UHGV virus genome: UHGV-0315017
Source: a virus
DNA: 13,309 bases
Reading direction: 5' to 3' (one strand)
Shown here: positions 406 through 13,083 of the stretch, piece after piece
Layout: each line of letters begins with the position of its first letter
Position numbering within the stretch: the stretch's first letter is position 1
Position numbers and translations under genes: made by a program
The notes under the pieces: model-generated
What the model saw: only the letters and a program-made list of their open reading frames with translations
Told to the model about the DNA's origin: nothing
The model's database searches: none

Positions 406-482
406 CGGCACGTAGCGCAGCCTGGTAGCGCACCGTCATGGGGTGTCGGGGGTCGGAGGTTCAAATCCTCTCGTGCCGACCA
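406..482 (+). tRNA. proL: tRNA-Pro, anticodon GGG
   Basis: 77-nt sequence CGGCACGTAGCGCAGCCTGGTAGCGCACCGTCATGGGGTGTCGGGGGTCGGAGGTTCAAATCCTCTCGTGCCGACCA; cloverleaf features (GTAGCGCAGCCTGGTAGCGC D-arm, GGTTCAAATCC T-arm, U-GGG-G anticodon loop, encoded CCA). Confidence 0.9.
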
Positions 483-487
483 AATCG
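461..487 (+). other. Putative attL core (3' end of tRNA-Pro), partner of a degenerate copy at 12004-12035
   Basis: TCAAATCCTCTCGTGCCGACCAAATC here versus TTAAACTACTCTCGTGGACCAAAAATC at the far end of the element (CTCTCGTG...GACCAAA shared). Confidence 0.5.
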
Positions 488-489
488 CC

Positions 490-507
490 CACCGGAAAGC
501 ACCGGAT
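490..507 (+). promoter_or_regulatory. Paired direct repeat CACCGGA-N3-CACCGGA (candidate recombination-directionality or regulator binding site)
   Basis: Same paired motif recurs at 564-580 and 2394-2410; read directly. Confidence 0.35.
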
Positions 508-520
508 AAGACAGGGATAA

Positions 521-551
521 CCCGCTAATCACTTGATTGGCGGGTTTTTTT
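521..551 (+). terminator. Rho-independent terminator downstream of tRNA-Pro
   Basis: CCCGCTAATC / GATTGGCGGG stem (one U-G wobble), 4-nt loop, followed by TTTTTTT. Confidence 0.7.
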
Positions 552-563
552 ATGTTTTTTAGT

Positions 564-580
564 CACCGAACATCACCGGA
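564..580 (+). promoter_or_regulatory. Paired direct repeat CACCGA-N5-CACCGGA (second copy of the CACCGGA motif pair)
   Basis: TCACCGAACATCACCGGATT resembles TCACCGGAATACACCGGATT at 2392-2412. Confidence 0.35.
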
Positions 581-603
581 TTTATAAGCTATCAGCCGGA
601 TTT

Positions 604-660
604 TTTAGTTATACGTTTAGTTATACGGGCTGGCGTATAACTAAAGCCGTATAACTAAAA
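604..660. repeat. Arm-type repeat cluster: two direct copies of TTAGTTATACG followed by two inverted copies CGTATAACTAA (candidate integrase arm sites)
   Basis: TTAGTTATACGTTTAGTTATACGG gctgg CGTATAACTAAAGCCGTATAACTAA read directly; the direct-copy half recurs at 11928-11952. Confidence 0.55.
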
Positions 661-690
661 CCCTGTTTTTTCGTGTGGAATCATAGACAT

Positions 691-1932
691 ATGGCGAGAA
701 AAACACACCCATTAACCACAGTGCAGATCAAAGCAGCCAGACCAGCGCAAAAGGAGTACACCCTGCAGGACGGCGGAGGGCTTTTTCTCCTGGTCAAACC
801 GTCTGGATCAAAACTCTGGAGATTTTCCTACTACCGACCATCGGACAAAAAAAGAATATTGCTGAGTTTTGGATCGCTTGAAGATGTTTCCCTGGCTGAT
901 GCCAGAAAACGCCGTAGCGAGTACAGGACGTTAATCAGTGCCGGAACTGACCCGCAGGACCACGAGAGGCAAAAAAGAGAGACAGAGGCCCGAAGACAAG
1001 GGAACACGTTCGAAAATGTGGCGGCGGCATGGTACCAGGTGAAAATCAGCCAGAATCTGGCCCCCAACACGATTAAAGACATCTGGCGTTCGCTGGATAA
1101 ATATGTATTCCCGTTCATCGGCAACACGCCAATAGATACCCTCACCGCCCGAAGGTTCGTTGAAGTGCTTACCCCCATCAAGGAGCGCGGCAACCTGGAA
1201 ACACTCAAGCGGGTTTTACAGCGCGTTAATGAGGTAATGGATTACGCCGCCAACAGTGGGCTGATTGATGCCAATCCGGCTATGAATGTGCGTAAGGCGT
1301 TTCCCTCACCTGTAAAAAAACATATGCCAACAATCCGCCCCGAACAGCTGCCGGAGCTTATGCAGGCTTTATCAGTATCGGCAACAGAACGGCAGACCAG
1401 ATTACTGATTGAATGGCAGTTACTGACCGTAACCCGTCCCGCCGAAGCGTCATCAACGCGGTGGGATGAAATCAACCTGGACGCGAAGCAATGGACGATA
1501 CCTGCCGGACGCATGAAGATGCGCAGGGATCACGTTATCCCGCTTTCCGGTCAGGCTATGGCGGTGCTGGAGGCCATGAAACCAATCAGCCACCACCGCA
1601 ATTACGTTTTCCCAAGTCTGAAAGACCCACAGCAGCCGATGAACAGCCAGACAGCTAACGCAGCATTGCGGCGTATGGGATTCGCTGGCGTGCTGGTGTC
1701 TCATGGATTACGCGCCATATTCAGCACAGCAGCGAACGAGGAAGGATTCGAGCCGGACGTAATAGAGGCGGCACTTGCCCACGTCGACACCAACGAAGTT
1801 AGACGGGCATACAACCGGAGCAACTACATAGAAAAACGCATCGTGCTGATGCGCTGGTGGGGCGAATTTGTCGAGGCTGCGGCGACGGGCGTAACCCTCG
1901 CCAGTGGTAAAAGGGGTATCCGAGCCGTGTAG
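691..1932 (+). CDS. int: Tyrosine recombinase / integrase, P4 type
   Basis: N-terminal region (LTTVQIKAARP...YTLQDGGGLFLLVKPSGSKLWRFSYY) typical of P4-family integrases; C-terminal catalytic region with HGLR and terminal Tyr motifs (VSHGLRAIFSTAA...AYNRSNY). ATG at 691 preferred over GTG at 673 from the ORF track. Confidence 0.9.
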   Translation: MARKTHPLTTVQIKAARPAQKEYTLQDGGGLFLLVKPSGSKLWRFSYYRPSDKKRILLSFGSLEDVSLADARKRRSEYRTLISAGTDPQDHERQKRETEARRQGNTFENVAAAWYQVKISQNLAPNTIKDIWRSLDKYVFPFIGNTPIDTLTARRFVEVLTPIKERGNLETLKRVLQRVNEVMDYAANSGLIDANPAMNVRKAFPSPVKKHMPTIRPEQLPELMQALSVSATERQTRLLIEWQLLTVTRPAEASSTRWDEINLDAKQWTIPAGRMKMRRDHVIPLSGQAMAVLEAMKPISHHRNYVFPSLKDPQQPMNSQTANAALRRMGFAGVLVSHGLRAIFSTAANEEGFEPDVIEAALAHVDTNEVRRAYNRSNYIEKRIVLMRWWGEFVEAAATGVTLASGKRGIRAV

Positions 1933-2009
1933 CTGTACAGAAAACCAGTAAAAACTACGAAAACCATGTAAAACCGTCGTATAATTGCATCAAATTTAAC
2001 GACAAGGCC

Positions 2010-2261
2010 GTGAAACATGAAACCGTTAAGATGCAAAAAAATATCAGATGCAATTGCGACGGGCTGCAACTGGCCCTGATGGTTCAGCATGAATTTTGGT
2101 CAACCTACGATCCGGAGGACAGGACGACGGCCCCATCAAAAAAACAGGTAGTAGATTTTCTGGTATCCCGTGGCGCTTCCAGAAATCTGGCGGTAAGTAT
2201 TGATAAGGTCGTACGTCCGGCATCTATGAAGATCGGAGGCAGGCCCAAAAAATGGCGGTAA
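2010..2261 (+). CDS. Hypothetical small protein (83 aa); weak call
   Basis: ORF without a convincing Shine-Dalgarno sequence; followed closely by a strong terminator; could instead be a non-coding leader. Confidence 0.3.
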   Translation: MKHETVKMQKNIRCNCDGLQLALMVQHEFWSTYDPEDRTTAPSKKQVVDFLVSRGASRNLAVSIDKVVRPASMKIGGRPKKWR

Positions 2262-2272
2262 CAATCCTGGAA

Positions 2273-2295
2273 GCGGCAGAAATGCCGCTTTTTTT
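2273..2295 (+). terminator. Rho-independent terminator
   Basis: GCGGCAGAAATGCCGC hairpin followed by TTTTTTT. Confidence 0.7.
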
Positions 2296-2393
2296 ATAAT
2301 TCCATTTCAAATCATCAATATAAAAAACGGTGTATACCGTTTAAAAACGGTGGGAACTGTTTTTACCCATATCCGATGATTTACCGTATTTGT

Positions 2394-2410
2394 CACCGGA
2401 ATACACCGGA
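2394..2410 (+). promoter_or_regulatory. Paired direct repeat CACCGGA-N3-CACCGGA just upstream of the AlpA-like gene
   Basis: GTCACCGGAATACACCGGATT 19-35 nt upstream of the ATG at 2429; same motif pair as near attL. Confidence 0.35.
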
Positions 2411-2428: not shown

Positions 2429-2635
2429 ATGGAAGCAATCAGAAAAATTATCTTTCGCCAGGAAGTAAAAAAAATTATCCACATCAAGGCAGACAGCACG
2501 CTGCAAAGCATGATCAACGCCGGAGAATTTCCGCAGGGTTTTCGCGTTGGTTTACGCCGTCGCGGATGGTATGAGGATGATGTGTTGGCCTGGCAGAAAG
2601 AACGCGAACAGGAAGCACGCGGAACGGCTGCTTAA
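2429..2635 (+). CDS. alpA: AlpA-family (prophage regulatory / excisionase-like) helix-turn-helix protein
   Basis: 68 aa; spacing of conserved residues (STL..I..G.FP....LG.R..GW.E.DV..W) matches the AlpA/Xis-like family as recalled; position after int is typical for P4-like and PICI elements. Confidence 0.75.
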   Translation: MEAIRKIIFRQEVKKIIHIKADSTLQSMINAGEFPQGFRVGLRRRGWYEDDVLAWQKEREQEARGTAA

Positions 2636-3014: not shown

Positions 3015-3194
3015 TTATTCTGATTCTTTGGCCTTGCGGCGCTGGCGGCGTTTGATCTCGCCTTCAAGTGCCGAAACGATAAATTGCCCTGTACTTTCGC
3101 CATCTTCCTTTAAATTTTCTACAGCATCAGCTATTGCGTGAGGTACTCGAGCCTCAAGCTTTTTGGATTTTGCATTAACTGCTTTTGTTGCCAT
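3015..3194 (-). CDS. Ribbon-helix-helix (CopG/Arc-like) DNA-binding protein, candidate island repressor
   Basis: Internal start MATKAVNAKSKKLEARVPHAIADAVENLKEDGESTGQFIVSALEGEI: basic beta-strand then two helices; GAGGAA SD 7 nt upstream of the ATG at 3194. The ORF-track 5' extension to 3323 is rejected. Confidence 0.65.
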   Translation of the reverse strand: MATKAVNAKSKKLEARVPHAIADAVENLKEDGESTGQFIVSALEGEIKRRQRRKAKESE

Positions 3195-3363
3195 ATCTGA
3201 TTTCCTCGTTATTAGGTGGCTGACAGTATACACACAAGAAAACGGAAAAACACTATTGACGTGGCTGACACCTTTATCAAGGTAATCGATGAAAAGACAA
3301 AGCCCCGCAAGTGTCGTTACCACTCGCAGGGCTTCTAACCAACAACGTAAACTAGGAGCCGTT
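3195..3363. promoter_or_regulatory. Divergent promoter region with direct repeats GTGGCTGACA (3215-3224 and 3260-3269)
   Basis: One repeat overlaps a rightward TTGACG -35-like hexamer, the other lies beside a leftward TATACT -10-like hexamer. Confidence 0.5.
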
Positions 3364-3847: not shown

Positions 3848-4015
3848 ATGGCTGTATCCGCACGCCCTTACTTTGTCTGGCGCTTTATGCAGTGCCAGGA
3901 AAAACAAACATCACTCTTTACCGTCACGGCAGCAACAGAACGCGAAGCCCGCGCCCAGCTGCCGCACGCACATCTGATTTTTGTCGCCCGTATTCGTCAG
4001 GGGGTAGGCTTATGA
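3848..4015 (+). CDS. Hypothetical small protein, paralog B (55 aa)
   Basis: AGGAGCC SD 9 nt upstream of ATG 3848; C-terminal 46 aa align with paralog A. The 174-aa ORF-track call from 3491 is rejected. Confidence 0.5.
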   Translation: MAVSARPYFVWRFMQCQEKQTSLFTVTAATEREARAQLPHAHLIFVARIRQGVGL

Positions 4016-4242
4016 GCCAGGAAATCACACTACAACAGGCAGCAGAACGCGCCCACCAAATCGAAGTTATTTGCGCACTGGCAGAGGATTACCCTGGCAT
4101 GATGACCGACAGCGAATCAGGGGCAATCATCGGCTTACTTAAACGCCTTAGCGGTGAGGTCTGCGTATTCCTGATCGATGAACAGGAAAGAAGAACGCTT
4201 ATTTCTAACGAAAAAAAATGCGGAGGGGTACATGTGCAATAA
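4012..4242 (+). CDS. Hypothetical protein (76 aa), translationally coupled to paralog B (ATGA overlap)
   Basis: Internal Met of ORF 3892-4242 with start overlapping the upstream stop; no recognisable motif. Confidence 0.45.
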   Translation: MSQEITLQQAAERAHQIEVICALAEDYPGMMTDSESGAIIGLLKRLSGEVCVFLIDEQERRTLISNEKKCGGVHVQ

Positions 4243-4462
4243 AACCACACCGGACGCAGCAGAAGAAGCAATGCAAATACTGATACGTGCGCTCGTTGAT
4301 GTTACCCACATGGTGGAGATTATGGAGAGAAAATCACAGTCGGAGCACGACAAAAGAAAACTTAAAACAATAAAAATAATTGCCAAAAACTCGCTGATAA
4401 AAGTTACAGACATCCTTAATGAGGACATTAAAAGAATAAGGGAGAAAATTTGTGATGCATAA
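4232..4462 (+). CDS. Hypothetical protein (76 aa) in AT-rich segment
   Basis: GGAGGGG SD 5-6 nt before ATG 4232; Lys/Ile/Glu-rich, predicted helical; composition visibly more AT-rich than flanks. Confidence 0.5.
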   Translation: MCNKTTPDAAEEAMQILIRALVDVTHMVEIMERKSQSEHDKRKLKTIKIIAKNSLIKVTDILNEDIKRIREKICDA

Positions 4463-4687: not shown

Positions 4688-4987
4688 ATGAAACTTAAAT
4701 ATTCTGGCTTAACTGCCAGTGGCAAAACTCGCACTAAATTCATGCGCGGTGATATTTACCGCGACCAGTACGGCGGCACGGTAATGATTAAGGGCGTGGA
4801 GGAACGGCGCATCACCTACCGTCGTGAAGGCTACGAATATGATTGCGTGATGCCTGTTTATCAGTTTCGGCGTGATTTTTCTCTGGTACAGGCAGCGCCC
4901 CGCAGTAAACCAACCAGCAGGGAGAAAGCACGCGCCAATATTCAGGAAATAAAAAAGATGCTTAACGTATTCAGGGGTAAAAAATGA
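4688..4987 (+). CDS. Hypothetical protein (99 aa) immediately upstream of and coupled to the primase gene
   Basis: GGAGAA SD; stop overlaps the primase start (ATGA at 4984-4987). Confidence 0.55.
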   Translation: MKLKYSGLTASGKTRTKFMRGDIYRDQYGGTVMIKGVEERRITYRREGYEYDCVMPVYQFRRDFSLVQAAPRSKPTSREKARANIQEIKKMLNVFRGKK

Positions 4988-6732
4988 AACTGGCACCGAA
5001 CGTAAAAAAACAACCACGCGGAATAAAACACAAAGACACAGAGGTAATTATTTTCGCGGGTAGTGATGCGTGGGCACATGCAAAACAGTGGCAGGAGCAG
5101 GACGGCCCCGCATCCGGCGATAATGTGCCGCCTGTGTGGCTTGGGCCAAATCAGCTTGCCGAACTTGATGCACTGAAAATTGTTCCGGATGGAAAAAAAC
5201 GCGTAAGGCTGTACCAGGCCGGAGAACTGGATTTGGTGGAGACCAAAAAGATTGGTCAGAAGCTGGCGGCGGCAGATATTCAGGACGCAAATTTTTACCA
5301 CGAAGGAATGCACGTCCAGAAGTGTGAAAACTGGCGGCGCTATCTGAATGCTGAGCGTGAAAATATTGCCGCAGGGCTTACCATGCCGGAGCAGAAAAAT
5401 ACGCAACTGGCACAAATGGCAGACAGTGAGCGCGCGCAGCTGCTTGCCGAGCGCTTTGATGGCGTTTGTGTGCATCAGGAAAGTGAAATCGTTCACGTAT
5501 GGCGCGGCGGGGTATGGTGTCCGGTCAGCACAATGGAACTTAGCCGCGAAATGGTGGCGATCTATTCAGAGCACAGGGCCACTTTCAGCAAGCGCGTAAT
5601 CAATAACGCCGTGGAAGCGTTAAAAGTTATTGCCGAACCAATGGGCGAGCCGTCCGGCGATTTGCTGCCGTTCGCCAATGGTGCGCTTGACCTGAAAACG
5701 GGGGAATTTTCCCCGCACACGCCGGAGAACTGGATCACCACGCACAACGGCATTGAGTACACGCCACCAGCACCTGGGGAGAACATCCGCGATAACGCGC
5801 CAAACTTTCATAAATGGCTTAAGCACGCAGCCGGAAAAGACCCGCGCAAGATGATGCGTATATGTGCCGCGCTGTACATGATTATGGCGAACCGGTACGA
5901 CTGGCAGATGTTTATTGAGGCCACCGGAGACGGCGGGAGCGGTAAAAGTACATTCACGCACATAGCCAGCCTTCTGGCAGGGAAACAGAACACGGTAAGC
6001 GCTGAAATGACATCGCTTGATGATGCTGGTGGACGTGCGCAGGTTGTCGGGAGTCGTCTTATCGTCCTGGCTGACCAGCCGAAATATACAGGCGAAGGAA
6101 CGGGCATCAAGAAAATCACGGGCGGTGACCCCGTGGAAATTAACCCGAAATACGAAAAGCGTTTCACGGCTGTAATCAGGGCGGTGGTGCTGGCGACCAA
6201 CAATAACCCGATGATATTCACCGAACGGGCCGGAGGTGTGGCACGTCGTCGCGTGATTTTCCGTTTCGACAATATCGTCAGTGAGGCCGAAAAAGACAGG
6301 GAGCTACCGGAAAAGATCGCGGCTGAAATCCCTGTCATTATCCGCCGATTGCTGGCGAACTTTACCGACCCTGAGAAGGCACGGGCTTTACTACTGGAAC
6401 AGCGTGACGGTGATGAAGCTCTGGCAATAAAGCAACAGACGGATCCGGTTATTGAGTTTTGCCAGTTCCTGAATTTTCTGGAGGAAGCACGCGGCCTGAT
6501 GATGGGCGGCGGTGGCGATTCAGTGAAGTACACGACCAGGAACAGCCTTTACCGCGTCTATCTGGCGTTTATGGCATACGCAGGCAGGAGCAAACCGCTA
6601 AACGTAAATGACTTTGGCAAGGCTATGAAGCCTGCCGCAAAAGTTTACGGACATGAATATATTACGCGGAAAGTTAAGGGGGTAACGCAGACTAACGCAA
6701 TAACAACAGACGAGTGCGACGCGTTTTTATAA
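4984..6732 (+). CDS. Replication initiator: primase / SF3 (D5-like) helicase, P4 alpha-like C-terminal region
   Basis: 582 aa with Walker A GDGGSGKST and downstream helicase-like motifs; size and position match the pri-rep genes of P4-like and PICI elements. Confidence 0.85.
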   Translation: MKLAPNVKKQPRGIKHKDTEVIIFAGSDAWAHAKQWQEQDGPASGDNVPPVWLGPNQLAELDALKIVPDGKKRVRLYQAGELDLVETKKIGQKLAAADIQDANFYHEGMHVQKCENWRRYLNAERENIAAGLTMPEQKNTQLAQMADSERAQLLAERFDGVCVHQESEIVHVWRGGVWCPVSTMELSREMVAIYSEHRATFSKRVINNAVEALKVIAEPMGEPSGDLLPFANGALDLKTGEFSPHTPENWITTHNGIEYTPPAPGENIRDNAPNFHKWLKHAAGKDPRKMMRICAALYMIMANRYDWQMFIEATGDGGSGKSTFTHIASLLAGKQNTVSAEMTSLDDAGGRAQVVGSRLIVLADQPKYTGEGTGIKKITGGDPVEINPKYEKRFTAVIRAVVLATNNNPMIFTERAGGVARRRVIFRFDNIVSEAEKDRELPEKIAAEIPVIIRRLLANFTDPEKARALLLEQRDGDEALAIKQQTDPVIEFCQFLNFLEEARGLMMGGGGDSVKYTTRNSLYRVYLAFMAYAGRSKPLNVNDFGKAMKPAAKVYGHEYITRKVKGVTQTNAITTDECDAFL

Positions 6733-6744
6733 TTTTTTGTAATT

Positions 6745-6972
6745 GCTGTCTACCCTGTCTACCCGAGTAAAGAAAAATACATTTAATTCAGTGCATTAAG
6801 TTAGGTAGATGGCCTTTTTTTACTGTCTACCCACTATCTACCCTCTCTACCTGATTTTACCTGAATCAGACAGGGAGGTAGACACGGGGTAGATACTGGA
6901 TAAAAGCACTCTACCCCGCTGAAAGCCGCGCCATTACTGGTATGAGGGCCACTAAGGTAGATAAGGTAGACA
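6745..6972. repeat. Iteron array (candidate replication origin): about 12 copies of TCTACC(C) / GGTAGA(C/T) in both orientations
   Basis: CTGTCTACCCTGTCTACCC, GGTAGATGG, CTGTCTACCCACTATCTACCCTCTCTACC, GAGGTAGACACGGGGTAGAT, CTCTACCCC, AAGGTAGATAAGGTAGAC; non-coding and immediately downstream of the primase-helicase gene. Confidence 0.65.
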
Positions 6973-7020
6973 AGGGGAGGCACAACTCAAAACTTTTTAA
7001 ACGAGGGGGTAAAAATAAAT

Positions 7021-7299
7021 ATGCACACTTCAGGGAAATTTAATAAATCACTCAAAAAACGCAGAGACAGAACAGAACCGAAATATCGCGCGTTAGACAT
7101 TACAGAGCACGCTTTAAAGGTGGCAATCAGAACGATAGACCGCCACGCGGGGGAAGGATACGCGAAAGCACATCCCGAACTGATAAGCGCATTCATGACC
7201 ACGACGGCGGCAAATTTTGCCACGCTGACAGAGCGGGAGATTGCCGAAGCGGAACAGGTAACAACCATCAACGTTAAAACCGGAGAGGTGGAATCATGA
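7021..7299 (+). CDS. Hypothetical protein (92 aa)
   Basis: GAGGGGG upstream of ATG; coupled to the ssb start (ATGA at 7296-7299). Confidence 0.55.
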   Translation: MHTSGKFNKSLKKRRDRTEPKYRALDITEHALKVAIRTIDRHAGEGYAKAHPELISAFMTTTAANFATLTEREIAEAEQVTTINVKTGEVES

Positions 7300-7706
7300 C
7301 AGCACAGATAGCCGCTTACGGGCGGCTAGTGGACGACCCGCAGGTAAAACAGACCAGCAAGGGCACACCGATGACGCTGGCGCGTATGGCGGTATCGTTG
7401 CCATGTAGTCAGGCGCAGGATGGGCAGGCGACGTTATGGCTATCGGTCATCGCATTTGGTAAGCAGGCCGACTTCCTGGCTAAACATCAAAAAGGCGACG
7501 TTGCCAGCGTATCCGGCACGATGCAGGTCAGCCAGTGGACCGGACAGAACGGGGAAACGCGGCAGGGTTATCAGGTTATTGCAGACAGCGTAATCAGTGC
7601 CCGTGCGGCACGTCCTGGCGGGAACAGACGCAAAACCACAGGCACACAGGGTAATCAGCCACCAGCGGGAGACGATGACCCCTACGGTGATGATATTCCG
7701 TTCTGA
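7296..7706 (+). CDS. ssb: Single-stranded DNA-binding protein (compact, 136 aa)
   Basis: OB-fold-like N-terminal region, Gly/Gln/Pro-rich linker and acidic C-terminal tail DDDPYGDDIPF matching the conserved SSB tail (...DDDIPF). Confidence 0.85.
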   Translation: MTAQIAAYGRLVDDPQVKQTSKGTPMTLARMAVSLPCSQAQDGQATLWLSVIAFGKQADFLAKHQKGDVASVSGTMQVSQWTGQNGETRQGYQVIADSVISARAARPGGNRRKTTGTQGNQPPAGDDDPYGDDIPF

Positions 7707-7943: not shown

Positions 7944-9206
7944 ATGGCTGAAGAGAAAAAAGGCGGTGTTTCGGTGTACATAAGCCCCGACATCGTGAAG
8001 GCGCTCAAGGAACGCCACCAGCAGAACGTAAAAGCAGGCATTGCGGCAGGACTTGACCCGCTGGCGATGGTTGAGCCGTCAACAGGCTGGCAGGTACGCG
8101 CCTATTTACGCGCGGCGCTGGGTATGAATCAGGTTCACGGGGGGGGAATAATGACAGTAAAAGCAATGGCACTTAACACTAACCAGCTTTTTGCGTACCT
8201 GAATCGCGAGGATATTGCGGAATTTAAATTCAGTCCGCTGTTTACCACGCTGTTTTTCCCGAACGTGGCGACATTCAGCACGCAAAACATCATGCTGGAT
8301 ACCCTGGACATTGAAGAAGTCACCATGTCGGCGTTTTGTTCGCCTATGGTGGGTAGCCAGGTTCAGCGCGATAAAGGGTACGAAACCAGCACAATCAAAC
8401 CTGGCTACATGAAGCCAAAGCACGAAATCGATCCAACGAAAACCATCATGCGCATGGCTGGAGAAGATCCGGCACAGCTTAACGACCCTACCTATCGCCG
8501 TATGCGCCTGATTACTGGCAATATGCGCCGCCAGATAAACGCCATAAAAGCGCGCGTGGAATGGCTGGCGGTAAATGCGGTAACGACCGGAAAAAACATC
8601 ATTGAGGGCGAAGGCATAGAGCGCTATGAAATCGACTGGAAGATACCGGAAAAAAACATCATAGAGCAGGCCGACGGTAAAAAATGGTCAGAGCAGGACA
8701 AAGAAATCCACGATCCAATCTATGATATCGAACTATACGCCGATCAGGCAGGTTGCCCCGCCAACGTCATGATTATGGGCGCTGAGGTATGGCGAACGTT
8801 ACGCAGCTTTAAAAAATTCCGTGAGCTGTACGATCTTTCCCGTGGTTCAGAGTCCGCCGCAGAGCTGGCATGTAAAAACCTGGGCGAAGTGGTGAGCTTT
8901 AAAGGCTATCTGGGCGATATTGCCCTTATCGTCTATTCCGGCAAATACGCCGACAGTGACGGCAGAGAAAAATATTTCCTTGAGCCTGATTTGCTTGTCC
9001 TGGGCAACACCAACAATAAAGGGCTGGTGGCCTATGGTGCGATTATGGATCAGGACGCAGTAAGAACGGGGGCAACGCAAAACATGTACTACCCGAAAAA
9101 CTGGATTGAGGACGGAGATCCGGCGATTGAGTACGTGCAGACACACAGTGCACCGCAGCCGGTACCGGCAGTTATTCGCAAATTTGTTACCGTCAAAATT
9201 GGTTAA
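7944..9206 (+). CDS. Major capsid protein, lambda gpE-like, with about 70-aa N-terminal extension
   Basis: Long blocks shared with lambda gpE as recalled: KFSPLF..LFF, PGYMKPKHE, EDPAQLNDPTYRRMR, SFKGYLGDIALIVYSGKY, LVLGNT, YPKNW..GDPA. AGAGGA SD before ATG 7944. Confidence 0.88.
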   Translation: MAEEKKGGVSVYISPDIVKALKERHQQNVKAGIAAGLDPLAMVEPSTGWQVRAYLRAALGMNQVHGGGIMTVKAMALNTNQLFAYLNREDIAEFKFSPLFTTLFFPNVATFSTQNIMLDTLDIEEVTMSAFCSPMVGSQVQRDKGYETSTIKPGYMKPKHEIDPTKTIMRMAGEDPAQLNDPTYRRMRLITGNMRRQINAIKARVEWLAVNAVTTGKNIIEGEGIERYEIDWKIPEKNIIEQADGKKWSEQDKEIHDPIYDIELYADQAGCPANVMIMGAEVWRTLRSFKKFRELYDLSRGSESAAELACKNLGEVVSFKGYLGDIALIVYSGKYADSDGREKYFLEPDLLVLGNTNNKGLVAYGAIMDQDAVRTGATQNMYYPKNWIEDGDPAIEYVQTHSAPQPVPAVIRKFVTVKIG

Positions 9207-9565: not shown

Positions 9566-9979
9566 ATGGCAACGAATGAAAGCATCATGACGCTACCGCT
9601 GGCGAGTAAATTTAAAGCCGAAGCGCGGGCAATGGCTGACAGAGGTTTATCAACCTATGAGGCCGTATATCAACTAAACAAACTGGAAGAGCAGGACAAG
9701 CCGCGCGCTGATGCGATTATGGCGCTTCATGAGCATAAAGACTATCAGCCGCTGTTGCGTGCAATGGCAAACGTGCCTTGTATCGATGTTGGTACGGCTA
9801 AAAGCATCCTTAGCATGACCATAGAGCAGGAACGCCAGAAGGTTGCACCAGAGCTTACCGCAGCCTTTGAAAACTTTATGGACATGCACAGCCCGCAAGC
9901 CGTATCAGCTGGCATGGCATACGATGGCAGAAACCAGGGCGATGACGGCGACATCGATCGCATACTGAAAACCATCTGA
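9566..9979 (+). CDS. Hypothetical protein (137 aa) between the decoration gene and cos
   Basis: AGGGGGA SD; acidic C-terminus (QGDDGDIDRILKTI); no family recognised. Confidence 0.6.
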   Translation: MATNESIMTLPLASKFKAEARAMADRGLSTYEAVYQLNKLEEQDKPRADAIMALHEHKDYQPLLRAMANVPCIDVGTAKSILSMTIEQERQKVAPELTAAFENFMDMHSPQAVSAGMAYDGRNQGDDGDIDRILKTI

Positions 9980-10010: not shown

Positions 10011-10086
10011 CGGGTCCTTTCCGGCATATGGACCCGTTACGGGGCGGCGACCTCGCGGTTTTTCGCTATTTATGAGCTTTTTCAGG
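10011..10086 (+). other. Lambda-type cos site X (cosQ-like, cosN, I2-like); cohesive-end 12-mer at 10042-10053
   Basis: ACGGGTCCTTTCCGG...CCGTTACG|GGGCGGCGACCT|CGCGGTTTTTCGCTATTTATGA closely matches the lambda right-end/left-end junction as recalled (…CGGGTCCTTTCCGGTGATCCGACAGGTTACG | GGGCGGCGACCTCGCGGGTTTTCGCTATTTATGAAA). Confidence 0.8.
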
Positions 10087-10186: not shown

Positions 10187-10729
10187 ATGAAATCGCACCT
10201 GATGAACAAAAAAAACATGGCGAAAAGCTGCCGTGTAAGTGCGACAGCGTTCGACAAGTGGGGAGTGACTCCCGTTGAACGTAAAGGCCGTGAGGCGTTT
10301 TACGATGTTGCCAGCGTGATAGACAATAGGGTTAACAATGCAATTAGCCAGCTTACAAACGACAAAGGCGATATTGATGATGATGAACTCTTACGAGTCA
10401 GGATCAGATTACTGACAGCACAGGCGGAGGCGCAGGAACTTAAAAACGAGCGCGATCGCGGTGACGTGATTGATACTGAGTTTTGCCTGTACGCGCTTTC
10501 AAAGCTGGCGAGTCAGATTTCATCAATCATGGACAGCCTCCCGCTTACTATGCAAAGGAGCTTCCCACAGATTACCCCCGCCATGCTGGATAGGCTTAAA
10601 AGGGAAGTGGTTAAAGCCTGTAATGCCAGTGCCAGAGTTGCCGACAACCTCCCACAGATACTGGCTGATTACTTGAAAGAAACAACCGGAAACGTACCGG
10701 AAAAGTTGCTACAGAAGAAAGGCGAGTAA
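10187..10729 (+). CDS. Terminase small subunit, lambda Nu1-like
   Basis: 180 aa (Nu1 is 181); N-terminal HTH region and central block LTAQAEAQELKNERDRGDVIDTEFCLYALSKLASQISSIMDSLPLTMQRSFP align with lambda Nu1 (LTRAQADAQELKNARDSAEVVETAFCTFVLSRIAGEIASILDGLPLSVQRRFP) as recalled. Confidence 0.85.
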   Translation: MKSHLMNKKNMAKSCRVSATAFDKWGVTPVERKGREAFYDVASVIDNRVNNAISQLTNDKGDIDDDELLRVRIRLLTAQAEAQELKNERDRGDVIDTEFCLYALSKLASQISSIMDSLPLTMQRSFPQITPAMLDRLKREVVKACNASARVADNLPQILADYLKETTGNVPEKLLQKKGE

Positions 10730-10874: not shown

Positions 10875-10952
10875 CCAGAAAAATTTTCATAAACAGATAA
10901 AAACCGCGAGGTCGCCGCCCCGTAACGGGCCATAATTCCAGGAAGGACCCGA
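10875..10952 (-). other. Lambda-type cos site Y in inverted orientation; cohesive-end 12-mer at 10909-10920 (minus strand)
   Basis: Reverse complement reads CGGGTCCTTCCTGGAATTATGGCCCGTTACGGGGCGGCGACCTCGCGGTTTTTATCTGTTTATGAAAATTTTTCTGG, about 75 bp near-identical to site X and forming an inverted repeat with it. Confidence 0.8.
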
Positions 10953-11167: not shown

Positions 11168-11231
11168 CTGGTTGATATTTTCGGAAACCTCAATTTGAGG
11201 AGGCCGGAAGCGTCACCCTTTAGATTCTGAA

Positions 11232-11246
11232 TGGTGATAATCACCA
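11232..11246. repeat. 15-bp palindrome TGGTGATAATCACCA (copy 1 of 3)
   Basis: Perfect palindrome; flanked CTGAA...CGCC. Confidence 0.6.
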
Positions 11247-11255
11247 CGCCCAATC

Positions 11256-11290: not shown

Positions 11291-11399
11291 AAAAGACGGT
11301 TTAACCGTTAATTAAAAATCGACGGGATTTTGTGTTTTCCGGACGACGTGGCCAACGTCATTTTTTAGCGAAAAATTCTGATTAAGGTCATTGTCTGAA

Positions 11400-11414
11400 T
11401 GGTCATAATGACCA
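11400..11414. repeat. 15-bp palindrome TGGTCATAATGACCA (copy 2 of 3)
   Basis: Perfect palindrome, preceded by CTGAA like copy 1. Confidence 0.6.
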
Positions 11415-11494
11415 CGCAGACCATCAAGGCAACCATAACGATTTTCGTTACGGTTGATGTGTGCCTTCGTCCGGCATTCGGACGATATAAGGGA

Positions 11495-11509
11495 TGGTCA
11501 TAATGACCA
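11495..11509. repeat. 15-bp palindrome TGGTCATAATGACCA (copy 3 of 3)
   Basis: Identical to copy 2. Confidence 0.6.
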
Positions 11510-11657
11510 CTCCTACAGAACAGGTAAAACCCACCAGCCTGATTAACAGTTAACCGGAAAAAAATCCGGCATGGGGGGGGAGTGGTTAGCCACGAACAAC
11601 GAATAAGCTGGACACCGCGCCCCCTCTCACGCAGAGAAAAAATTACCGTTTCGTAGT

Positions 11658-11927: not shown

Positions 11928-11952
11928 ATTTTAGTTATACGTTTGGTTATAC
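11928..11952 (+). repeat. Arm-type direct repeat TTTTAGTTATACGTTTGGTTATACGG, partner of 604-628
   Basis: 24 of 25 positions identical to the left-end copy. Confidence 0.55.
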
Positions 11953-12003
11953 GGTTTAAAAGTTGAATCAATAATATTTATTAAAATCATGCGGTTACAC
12001 GCT

Positions 12004-12035
12004 AAATTAAACTACTCTCGTGGACCAAAAATCCC
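12004..12035 (+). other. Putative attR core: degenerate copy of the tRNA-Pro 3' end
   Basis: TAAATTAAACTACTCTCGTGGACCAAAAATCCC versus tRNA TTCAAATCCTCTCGTGCCGACCAAATCGCCC. Confidence 0.5.
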
Positions 12036-12129: not shown

Positions 12130-13083
12130 TCAGAACGTCCAGACTACACCCGCCTGAGTTGTGCTGCTTTCTTCACGGGAGAAACGACTATCGATACCGA
12201 GCGTCAGCCCCGTCAATGTTTGCTCAAAGCCAGCGCCTGCATCAGTGGTCACGTCGTTGCGGCTGTTAATTGCCGAACTCCACATCGCCGTATCGTAATT
12301 AACGCCTTTTACGCTACCAAGACGCCCACGCACGGTGTCCAGTTCTGCATCAAATACCAGCGGTTGTGCTGCCGCCATATTCAGCACATCCGTGGTTGAA
12401 GGGGTCATTTGTGCGCGATTCTCTGCGAGACTCCAGCTATGGTTGCCATTATCCAGCAAGGTATATTCATACGTACTGATATCAACAACGCTTCCGGCAT
12501 TGCCCAACGTAAATGCAGCATCACCGCCGCCCGTTGTTACCAGTGTAAGGCTATCTCCTGCTGCCGGGCTGGCACCGGTGTCCGTCACGAATATTTTGAA
12601 ATCACCTGTTGCTTTAACCTCCAGTAGTCCTCCCTTTTCTATAACGGCAAAGACGGCAATCCCATCTTTTTCAACAATTAAGCGCCCGCCTTTAATCGTG
12701 GGATCATTCGCCGCGCCATAAACCTGTAGCACTCCATTATTGATCGTAGTCTGATTTACCGCGCCACCCATTTGAACAATTTGATAACCATCATTTAATA
12801 CTGCGTATTCTGCGGTGCCATTTATTTCAACGTACTGATATCCCCCGTTAATTTCAGTATTACTACTTACACCAAATTCTTATATATGCTGTTCTCCGCC
12901 AGGATTGATTTTCGTATTATTGGCGGTCCAATAAACCAGCTGGATATCTTTTTCCAGGACAACACCATCAACTGGCTCACCATACTCAACAGTTGATGCC
13001 AATGCTATGGGCGAATATAACGCTGTAGCCACCAGAACAGATATTGCGGAACGACAAAGAGAAACAGAACCAGATTGGTGCAT
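12130..13083 (-). pseudogene. Autotransporter/adhesin-like gene interrupted by an in-frame TAA (12880-12882); possibly a yejO-type locus
   Basis: ORFs 12880-13083 (signal-peptide-like N-terminus) and 12130-12771 (Gly/Thr-rich beta-helix-like repeats ending ...VVWTF) are in the same frame, separated by a single TAA. The total length is too short for a complete autotransporter. Confidence 0.5.

Follow-up and report, generated by a model that had tools for sequence, protein, structure and literature searches.

Phased CACCGGA repeats on the attL arm and upstream of alpA are candidate excisionase operators in an Escherichia coli phage-inducible chromosomal island at proL

The virus genome UHGV-0315017, analysed here as a single strand of 13,309 nt read 5' to 3' (the window, to which all coordinates refer unless stated otherwise), carries an EcCICFT073-like phage-inducible chromosomal island (PICI) integrated at the 3' end of the Escherichia coli tRNA-Pro(GGG) gene, proL. 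The proL gene was located with ARAGORN at 406..482 on the + strand, and is flanked by yejM and a yejO remnant as in annotated E. coli. The attL crossover core, CTCTCGTGCCGACCAAA, is common to attB and, minus a CC, to attR; it lies at 468..484 (+), as seen when attL and attR are aligned with the empty site. The first genes of the island encode a P4-like tyrosine integrase (Int; 691..1932, +; Pfam Phage_integrase, Phage_int_M and Arm-DNA-bind_3; 34% identical to P4 Int), the 76-aa product of an open reading frame (ORF) between int and alpA (2031-2261), and a 68-aa AlpA/Vis-type helix-turn-helix (HTH) protein (2429..2635, +; identified through PHROG and homology to P4 Vis), which we propose to serve both as recombination directionality factor (RDF) and as transcriptional regulator. 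Short direct repeats of the word CACCGGA lie on the attL arm and again immediately upstream of alpA, and AlpA probably acts at both places.

Three paired repeats, CACCGGAaagCACCGGA at 490-506, CACCGAAcatCACCGGA at 564-580 and CACCGGAataCACCGGA at 2394-2410, had been pointed out in an earlier note made from the sequence alone, which described them as two-copy direct repeats with about one helical turn between copies. All three are present, with the single correction that the first pair ends at 506 rather than 507; in each of them the start-to-start spacing is 10 bp, and both units read along the same strand. Two of the pairs lie where the note had placed them, between the att core and the Int arm sites (604-660), and the third ends 18 nt before the ATG of alpA at 2429. 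Exact CACCGGA occurs eight times on the + strand of the window and not at all on the - strand, against an expectation of 1.50 +/- 1.31 (0/200 shuffles reached eight), and the two-copy pattern CACCGGANNNCACCGGA, with two or fewer mismatches, has three matches against 0.07 expected (0/200 shuffles reached three). The paired 10-bp design is confined to intergenic DNA, always on the + strand. When one mismatch per unit is allowed, a single additional near-phased pair appears, with a spacing of 11, inside the terS coding sequence; isolated copies of CACCGGA inside genes, at 4248, 4670 and 5922, are taken as chance occurrences because 1.5 are expected. The note had also considered that 490-580 might be host sequence present in island-free alleles. 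Among 5,426 complete E. coli genomes, the host match to the window ends at ~484 unless the island is carried, and 490-580 is therefore island DNA; in the empty attB, the alignment has ACCAAA joined directly to the host terminator. At least 80% of the window between 380 and 2700 is found in 286 of the 5,426 genomes, and alpA with its upstream region in 374.

The attL arm is ordered core, Box I, integration host factor (IHF) site, Box II, arm-type sites and int. Box I (490..506, +) begins 5 bp past the core and consists of two CACCGGA units 10 bp apart, which we propose are AlpA sites for directionality control beside the core. Box II (564..600, +) abuts the arm-type Int sites and holds a 10-bp register, with CACCGAA at 564, CACCGGA at 574, a non-matching slot at 584 and AGCCGGA at 594. 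The last of these (594-600), two turns or 20 bp past the unit at 574, is a fifth attL unit that the earlier note had missed, as it had the offset of 74 bp, or ~7 turns, between the first units of Box I and Box II; in a related island, L076, all four slots of Box II are filled (CACCGGA/AACCGGA/AAACGGT/AACCGGA). Between the boxes, a terminator scan identified a proL terminator hairpin supplied by the island (519..553, +), the stem of which has compensatory changes between the island classes described below; the island's own hairpin replaces the proL terminator, and Box I is therefore transcribed within the 3' trailer of the tRNA. A pattern match to the IHF consensus (526-538, -) sits at the terminator centre, midway from Box I to Box II. 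Arm-type integrase sites, TTAGTTATACG, were found by repeat search at 604..660 (+), two as direct copies (604-627) and two inverted (634-660), and the same sequence is present on the attR (P) arm at 11931..11954 (+), an arm on which a heptamer scan allowing one mismatch found no CACCGGA units. Since the heptamers vary from class to class and these separate arm-type repeats hardly do, the two are sites of different kinds. Together, the fifth unit and the IHF consensus would complete a typical excisive-intasome arm.

We compared the window with the attL arms of proL islands from twelve other genomes, and recognised three classes that differ in the unit word: CACCGGA/CACCGAA in class A, NRYCGGW in class B (e.g. 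TATCGGA, CATCGGT, CGCCGGA, AATCGGT and AACCGGA), and CATCGTT/CATAGTT/CGACGKT in class C. Unit positions were readable in 11 arms, and in these, across all three classes, the units stand at +12, +22, (+32), +85/86, +95/96 and, for the most part, +115/116, counted from the G of GACCAAA; these positions hold while the terminator and the rest of the flanking DNA diverge among classes. Within class A, the 3-nt spacers vary (aag/tat/tac/aat; cat/tat) and the heptamers are constant. In L002, which is 96% identical, the spacers change from aag to tat and from cat to tat, a 10-bp indel adjoins the attL pairs, and both of these pairs keep their heptamers. Box I has two or three units depending on the island (three in L004, L005 and L075), with the array changing by exactly one 10-bp unit, and at the alpA-proximal box most islands have two units, with a third in L010 and L053, again in a step of exactly 10 bp. 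Expansion by one turn at both attL and the alpA box fits what would be expected of head-to-tail protein arrays.

We also scanned IMG/VR with the alpA-box word and obtained 53 loci, nearly all on contigs that begin at the int ATG, such that attL is absent. This set served only to reveal int/alpA recombinants, which were then recovered from complete genomes; the invariance of the box among the 53 loci reflects ascertainment and is not evidence.

The alpA-proximal box (2394..2410, +), a proposed autoregulatory operator, consists of two CACCGGA units 10 bp apart. Relative to the start codon of alpA it spans 19-35 bp upstream, with the Shine-Dalgarno sequence between box and ATG. Given this distance from the ATG, and given that a 10-bp expansion is tolerated in L010, the alpA core promoter would lie upstream, with the box at or after the transcription start. 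A box in this position usually suits repression, and Vis represses at PLL, as Apl and Cox do at their targets. Manual inspection for promoters gave weak candidates only. A repeat search identified two 16-bp palindromes, AACGGT-N4-ACYGTT, 20 bp apart on the 5' side of the box (2326-2341 and 2346-2361, +), which are kept between class-A and class-B promoters although the adjacent DNA diverges, and an invariant TTTACCGTATTT lies at 2381-2392, just upstream of the box. The palindromes and TTTACCGTATTT point to further regulators, which may include a helper-dependent input; the palindromes are a candidate target of a dimeric regulator, which might be the inducer of alpA that depends on the helper phage.

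The AlpA-like protein is a homologue of Vis, with 31% identity to the P4 protein over 49 aa in BLASTP (E 3e-8). It matches PHROG 66 (E 5.5e-7) and PHROG 2790 (E 3e-6), both 'excisionase and transcriptional regulator', and has in common with other PICI AlpA alleles a G-FP...GW...V.AW motif. A low-confidence AlphaFold 2 (AF2) model has the order strand-helix-helix-wing-helix. The top Foldseek matches of this weak model, all with E > 0.2, are the GIsul2 excisionase (8c3t), Pukovnik Xis, MerR N-domains and BldC, and phmmer aligned the protein to 8c3t with E 0.48; the fold matches are thus only suggestive of excisionases and of MerR-like direct-repeat binders. A single-protein scan of species-representative genomes returned no AlpA relatives, and an alignment scan of these genomes returned eight, one of which is close (E. 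albertii, class C). Because the scans gave so few relatives, the family looks largely confined to Escherichia.

We consider that AlpA is probably a bifunctional protein, an RDF and an autoregulator, that binds the CACCGGA units. The repeats themselves, which are non-random and occur in island DNA only, are real and almost certainly functional; we infer that AlpA, rather than Int or another factor, is what binds them, and that binding bends the DNA and promotes excision. In the mechanism that we propose, AlpA monomers would bind head-to-tail to units one helical turn apart, occupying the two to three units of Box I, from 5 bp past the core, and the three to four slots of Box II, abutting the arm-type Int sites. 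Filling both boxes, AlpA would, together with IHF, bend the P' arm, and the bent arm would allow Int on the TTAGTTATACG arm sites to contact the core and form an excisive complex. As an RDF, AlpA would in this way direct Int towards excision, and AlpA bound to the two (or three) units 19-35 bp upstream of alpA would feed back on its own transcription. The mechanism would most likely be that of Vis and TorI. The earlier note had suggested an excisionase-like factor that both bends attL and autoregulates its promoter, and every computational test capable of refuting this suggestion has instead favoured it.

Operators of RDFs are direct repeats spaced about one turn apart, with cooperative binding and bending, and the operators of Apl, Cox and Vis recur at promoters (PMC7498355). 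The units of the window are likewise head-to-tail and about one helical turn apart, and lie on the element's att arm, between the core and the arm-type Int sites, in DNA that is absent from the empty site. In the satellite phage P4, excision requires Vis (ORF88; PMC2603039, PMC7286903), which binds attP, as determined by electrophoretic mobility shift assay (EMSA) and footprinting (PMC2603039), and acts as a repressor of Pint (PMC7286903). We found in the P4 record three plus three phased units between the core (4078-4097) and the int-proximal arm repeats (3942-3965), namely TTCCAAG/ATCCGAG/GTCCAAA and TTCCGAG/GTCCGTT/ATCCGGA, which follow the pattern (A/T/G)TCC(G/A)NN. The two blocks start 73 bp apart with an IHF-like ATCAA motif between them, and phased CCGRA-like units (ACCCGAA/GGACGGA/ATCCGGT) lie upstream of vis. 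Phased pairs number four against 0.21 expected and occur nowhere else in the P4 genome, for a pattern that was defined after seeing them. Cali et al. in 2004 reportedly described Vis-bound sites named 'Box I and Box II' in the stretch that separates int from the core. P4 and the window thus share a P4-type integrase by a tRNA core, with arm-type repeats adjoining int; two 10-bp-phased blocks from core to arm, in the same orientation, with a CCGRA core and an offset of 73 bp in P4 and 73-74 bp here; and further phased units just upstream of a small winged HTH gene (vis or alpA). They differ in the word (WTCCGRN in P4, CACCGGA here), in the number of units (3+3 in P4, 2+3 here), in the position of the regulator gene, which directly follows int in the window and lies 5 kb away in the late operon in P4, and in the logic of induction and the helper, which is P2 for P4 and lambdoid phages for PICIs.

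A similar arrangement is found in KplE1, where attL carries five TorI sites in two blocks between a tRNA core (argW) and intS, and where TorI represses PintS; attL and the int promoter overlap there, and the RDF gene has a separate transcript (PMC2951348). KplE1 and the window therefore have five RDF-type units each, in two blocks between a tRNA core and int, whereas the TorI words (GTTCG, GATCG and GTCCG) have other spacings, the KplE1 integrase is of a different clade, and no action of TorI on its own promoter is reported, in contrast to what we propose for AlpA. Apl of phage 186 and Cox of P2 are dual-purpose RDFs that use the same direct repeats, 10-11 bp apart, at att and in a promoter region, binding them cooperatively and bending the DNA (PMC7498355); their promoter arrays comprise 5-7 units and repress lysis-lysogeny switch promoters, and the proteins are unrelated in sequence to the AlpA of the window. 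The design of the boxes is accordingly one already known from P4 and KplE1, whose layout the island shares, and the window is an ordinary instance of it in a PICI.

Among PICIs, EcCICFT073, which serves as the reference for E. coli, is the same type of element, with the same order of int, alpA, pri-rep, ssb, capsid-E-like and gpD-like genes. Its AlpA is required for excision and activates PalpA, with Pint unaffected (PMC6092414), and alpA of EcCIMP1 is likewise required for excision (PMC11773190). In EcCICFT073 the word GRMACAA recurs in phase on each of the att arms, behind int, and at 52 bp upstream of alpA (six phased pairs against 0.01 expected). It thereby shares with the window the use of one phased word at the att arm(s) and upstream of alpA, and differs in the AlpA allele (26% identity), the word, the integrase and the att site, which is beside roxA; moreover, its units are on both att arms, and of the two arms in the window only that of attL has them.

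Several observations weigh against our interpretation. AlpA is 100/77/65% identical and Int 100/83/83% identical across classes A/B/C, and the divergence of the boxes parallels AlpA more than Int, a soft argument; Int also differs between classes, at about 82-83% identity overall and 76-81% in its arm domain, and co-variation alone therefore cannot separate Int from AlpA. In two recombinants, L075 and L077, the attL boxes and the N-terminus of Int are of class A and AlpA is of class B (98.5% identical to class B), which rules out strict co-variation of AlpA and boxes for these two classes. The class-B alpA box is itself CACCGGA/CGCCGGA, so that A and B probably form one specificity group. The class-C islands, L001 and L012, keep attL boxes of the CATCGTT type, and we found no box 5' of alpA in these two islands, where the promoter region is non-homologous; the use of the same word in both places thus holds for classes A and B only, with one operator word found at att and at the controlled promoter in these classes and not in class C. 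We looked for an island with the same alpA and an integrase of a different family, which would separate Int from AlpA, and found none; in the copy beside roxA in E. coli Nissle 1917, int is truncated and the attL arm is absent. A consensus scan recognised no sigma-70 promoter near the attL or alpA region, and the one experimental result, for the distant EcCICFT073 allele (26% identity), is activation and not repression by AlpA of its own promoter (PMC6092414, PMC11773190). As for the protein, its match to Pfam Phage_AlpA (PF05930) scores 17.6 bits (E 0.0035), under the cut-off of 21, no NCBIfam family matched it, and the AF2 model has a predicted local distance difference test (pLDDT) score of 65 and a predicted template modelling (pTM) score of 0.43, both of low confidence.

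The heptamers could instead be extra integrase sites, of an accessory arm type or an extended core type, in which case the copy upstream of alpA would give Int control of alpA. The boxes do travel with the Int N-terminal/attL segment in L075 and L077, Int differs between box classes in its arm-binding domain as elsewhere, Box I begins just 5 bp from the core, and P4 Int autoregulates via sites in the corresponding region (PMC2951348, discussion; PMC7286903). We nevertheless regard this as unlikely, because a distinct arm-type repeat, TTAGTTATACG, is found on both arms and is nearly constant in all classes while the heptamers vary, because the attR arm has no heptamer pair, and because box divergence tracks the identity of AlpA and not that of Int; furthermore, head-to-tail 10-bp units in two blocks are the signature of an RDF in KplE1, 186 and lambda (PMC2951348, PMC7498355). 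It is quite unlikely that some other factor binds the units, be it the product of the ORF at 2031-2261 or a DNA-binding protein of the host. This 76-aa ORF keeps its place beside int in islands of classes A and B, and no family is assigned to it from Pfam, NCBIfam or PHROG, which leaves room for such a role, but it is absent from class C, where the boxes hold the same positions. A host protein would leave the class-specific box sequences at fixed positions unexplained, and we are not aware of any E. coli regulator whose site is a CACCGGA direct repeat.

That the repeats are neutral, functionless products of replication slippage on a 10-bp tandem repeat seems barely credible: copy number does change by whole units, as slippage would predict, yet one heptamer recurs at three separate places with different spacers, the distances from the core are fixed over diverged sequence, the 74-bp block offset resembles that of P4, and three pairs are found where 0.07 are expected. 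A further alternative bears only on the alpA-proximal site, at which AlpA might act as a promoter-loaded Q-like antiterminator, in the manner of Pseudomonas aeruginosa AlpA, and not as a classical operator-bound regulator. We judge this very unlikely, despite the location of the box at or just past the likely transcription start, the presence of a hairpin 3' of alpA (2662-2694) and the requirement of downstream gene expression for PICI AlpA (PMC6092414), since P. aeruginosa AlpA has as its site one 6-bp element that lies between -35 and -10 (PMC9371919) and the protein of the window is Vis/Xis-like, with 68 residues. An antiterminator of the P. aeruginosa type proper, a multi-helix protein with an N-terminal ring and a C-terminal HTH (PMC9371919), does not fit the protein, which has 68 aa and one HTH, or the proposed operator, a direct-repeat pair near the start codon.

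AlpA is the switch that couples induction of E. coli PICIs to the helper phage, and in the literature that we searched we found no published map of AlpA operators in any PICI. It is possible, if somewhat doubtful, that the PICI AlpA, known as a 'master activator', is also an RDF with a phased CACCGGA operator and that its attL layout is positionally homologous to the Vis boxes of P4. If so, the recombination-regulation modules of P4 and PICIs would have a common origin, the excision and induction thresholds would be tuned between strains by 10-bp units gained or lost singly at attL and PalpA, and the helper-phage signal would enter at the palindromes at 2326-2361, an entry point long sought. 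As an operator hypothesis for PICI AlpA, the word, with its natural two- and three-unit variants and three classes, offers a handle for separating the excision role of AlpA from its transcriptional role, and lets one ask about cross-talk between co-resident islands. Beyond this, the finding mainly confirms the standard P4/KplE1 architecture in the island of the window.

At its right end, the island meets the attR core remnant, CTCTCGTGGACCAAA (12015..12029, +; attB/attL/attR alignment), which is followed by the original host terminator of proL. The same alignment gives the island limits as 485 and ~12014, or ~11.5 kb. The end of yejM lies 5' of proL and the yejO autotransporter remnant begins at 12130. 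The CC of the tRNA copy is missing from the attR core (CTCTCGTG--GACCAAA), which fits a crossover within GACCAAA and could also lower excision. In its gene set, gene order, length and specific att site the island conforms to a PICI of the EcCICFT073 type. Beyond alpA, it encodes a D5/primase-helicase (4984-6732; Pfam) and a single-stranded DNA-binding protein (SSB; 7296-7706; from position and the RefSeq annotation of relatives), as well as a capsid-E-like protein, a gpD-like protein and a Nu1-like small terminase (Pfam).

Directly 3' of the int stop there is a short-repeat array, phased at ~10 bp and specific to each island type: GWAAAAC four times in the window (1940-1975), RRAACAA six times in EcCICFT073 (L008, 17187-17245) and GGAGCCAATTT four times in class C (L012, 3710-3755). 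The Nissle 1917 copy (L003, 3420-4350) has a window-type alpA and promoter, 99.7% identical, at the EcCICFT073 site beside roxA; this alpA is fused to a 3' fragment of a proL-type int, without an attL arm, and the copy is a hybrid island that has been rearranged and is probably immobile. In the window, GTGGCTGACA occurs twice, at ~3214 and ~3260, 46 bp apart, in the region where a YlcI/YnfO-like gene (3015-3323, - strand) diverges from the rightward genes. GTCTACC/GGTAGA iterons are dense at 6740-6980, just 3' of the primase-helicase gene, and this iteron field is probably the replication origin of the island.

Within the packaging and capsid region, the capsid-E-like protein (7944-9206) has 420 aa against 351 aa in its EcCICFT073 counterpart, and thus carries an extension, and a 137-aa ORF (9566-9979) weakly matches head-maturation proteases (PHROG 53) in their C-terminal part. 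The arms of a 72-nt inverted repeat, 82% complementary, lie at 10011-10082 and 10880-10951; each arm contains a lambda-cos-like GGGCGGCGACCTCGCGG, and the Nu1-like small-terminase gene (10187-10729) lies between the arms, such that there are two cos-like sites in opposite orientation. Finally, in the non-coding right end of the island, palindromes of sequence TGGTSATAATSACCA (and TGGTGATCACCA) repeat at 11226-11249, 11394-11417, 11489-11512 and ~11804, and look like operators for a dimeric protein.

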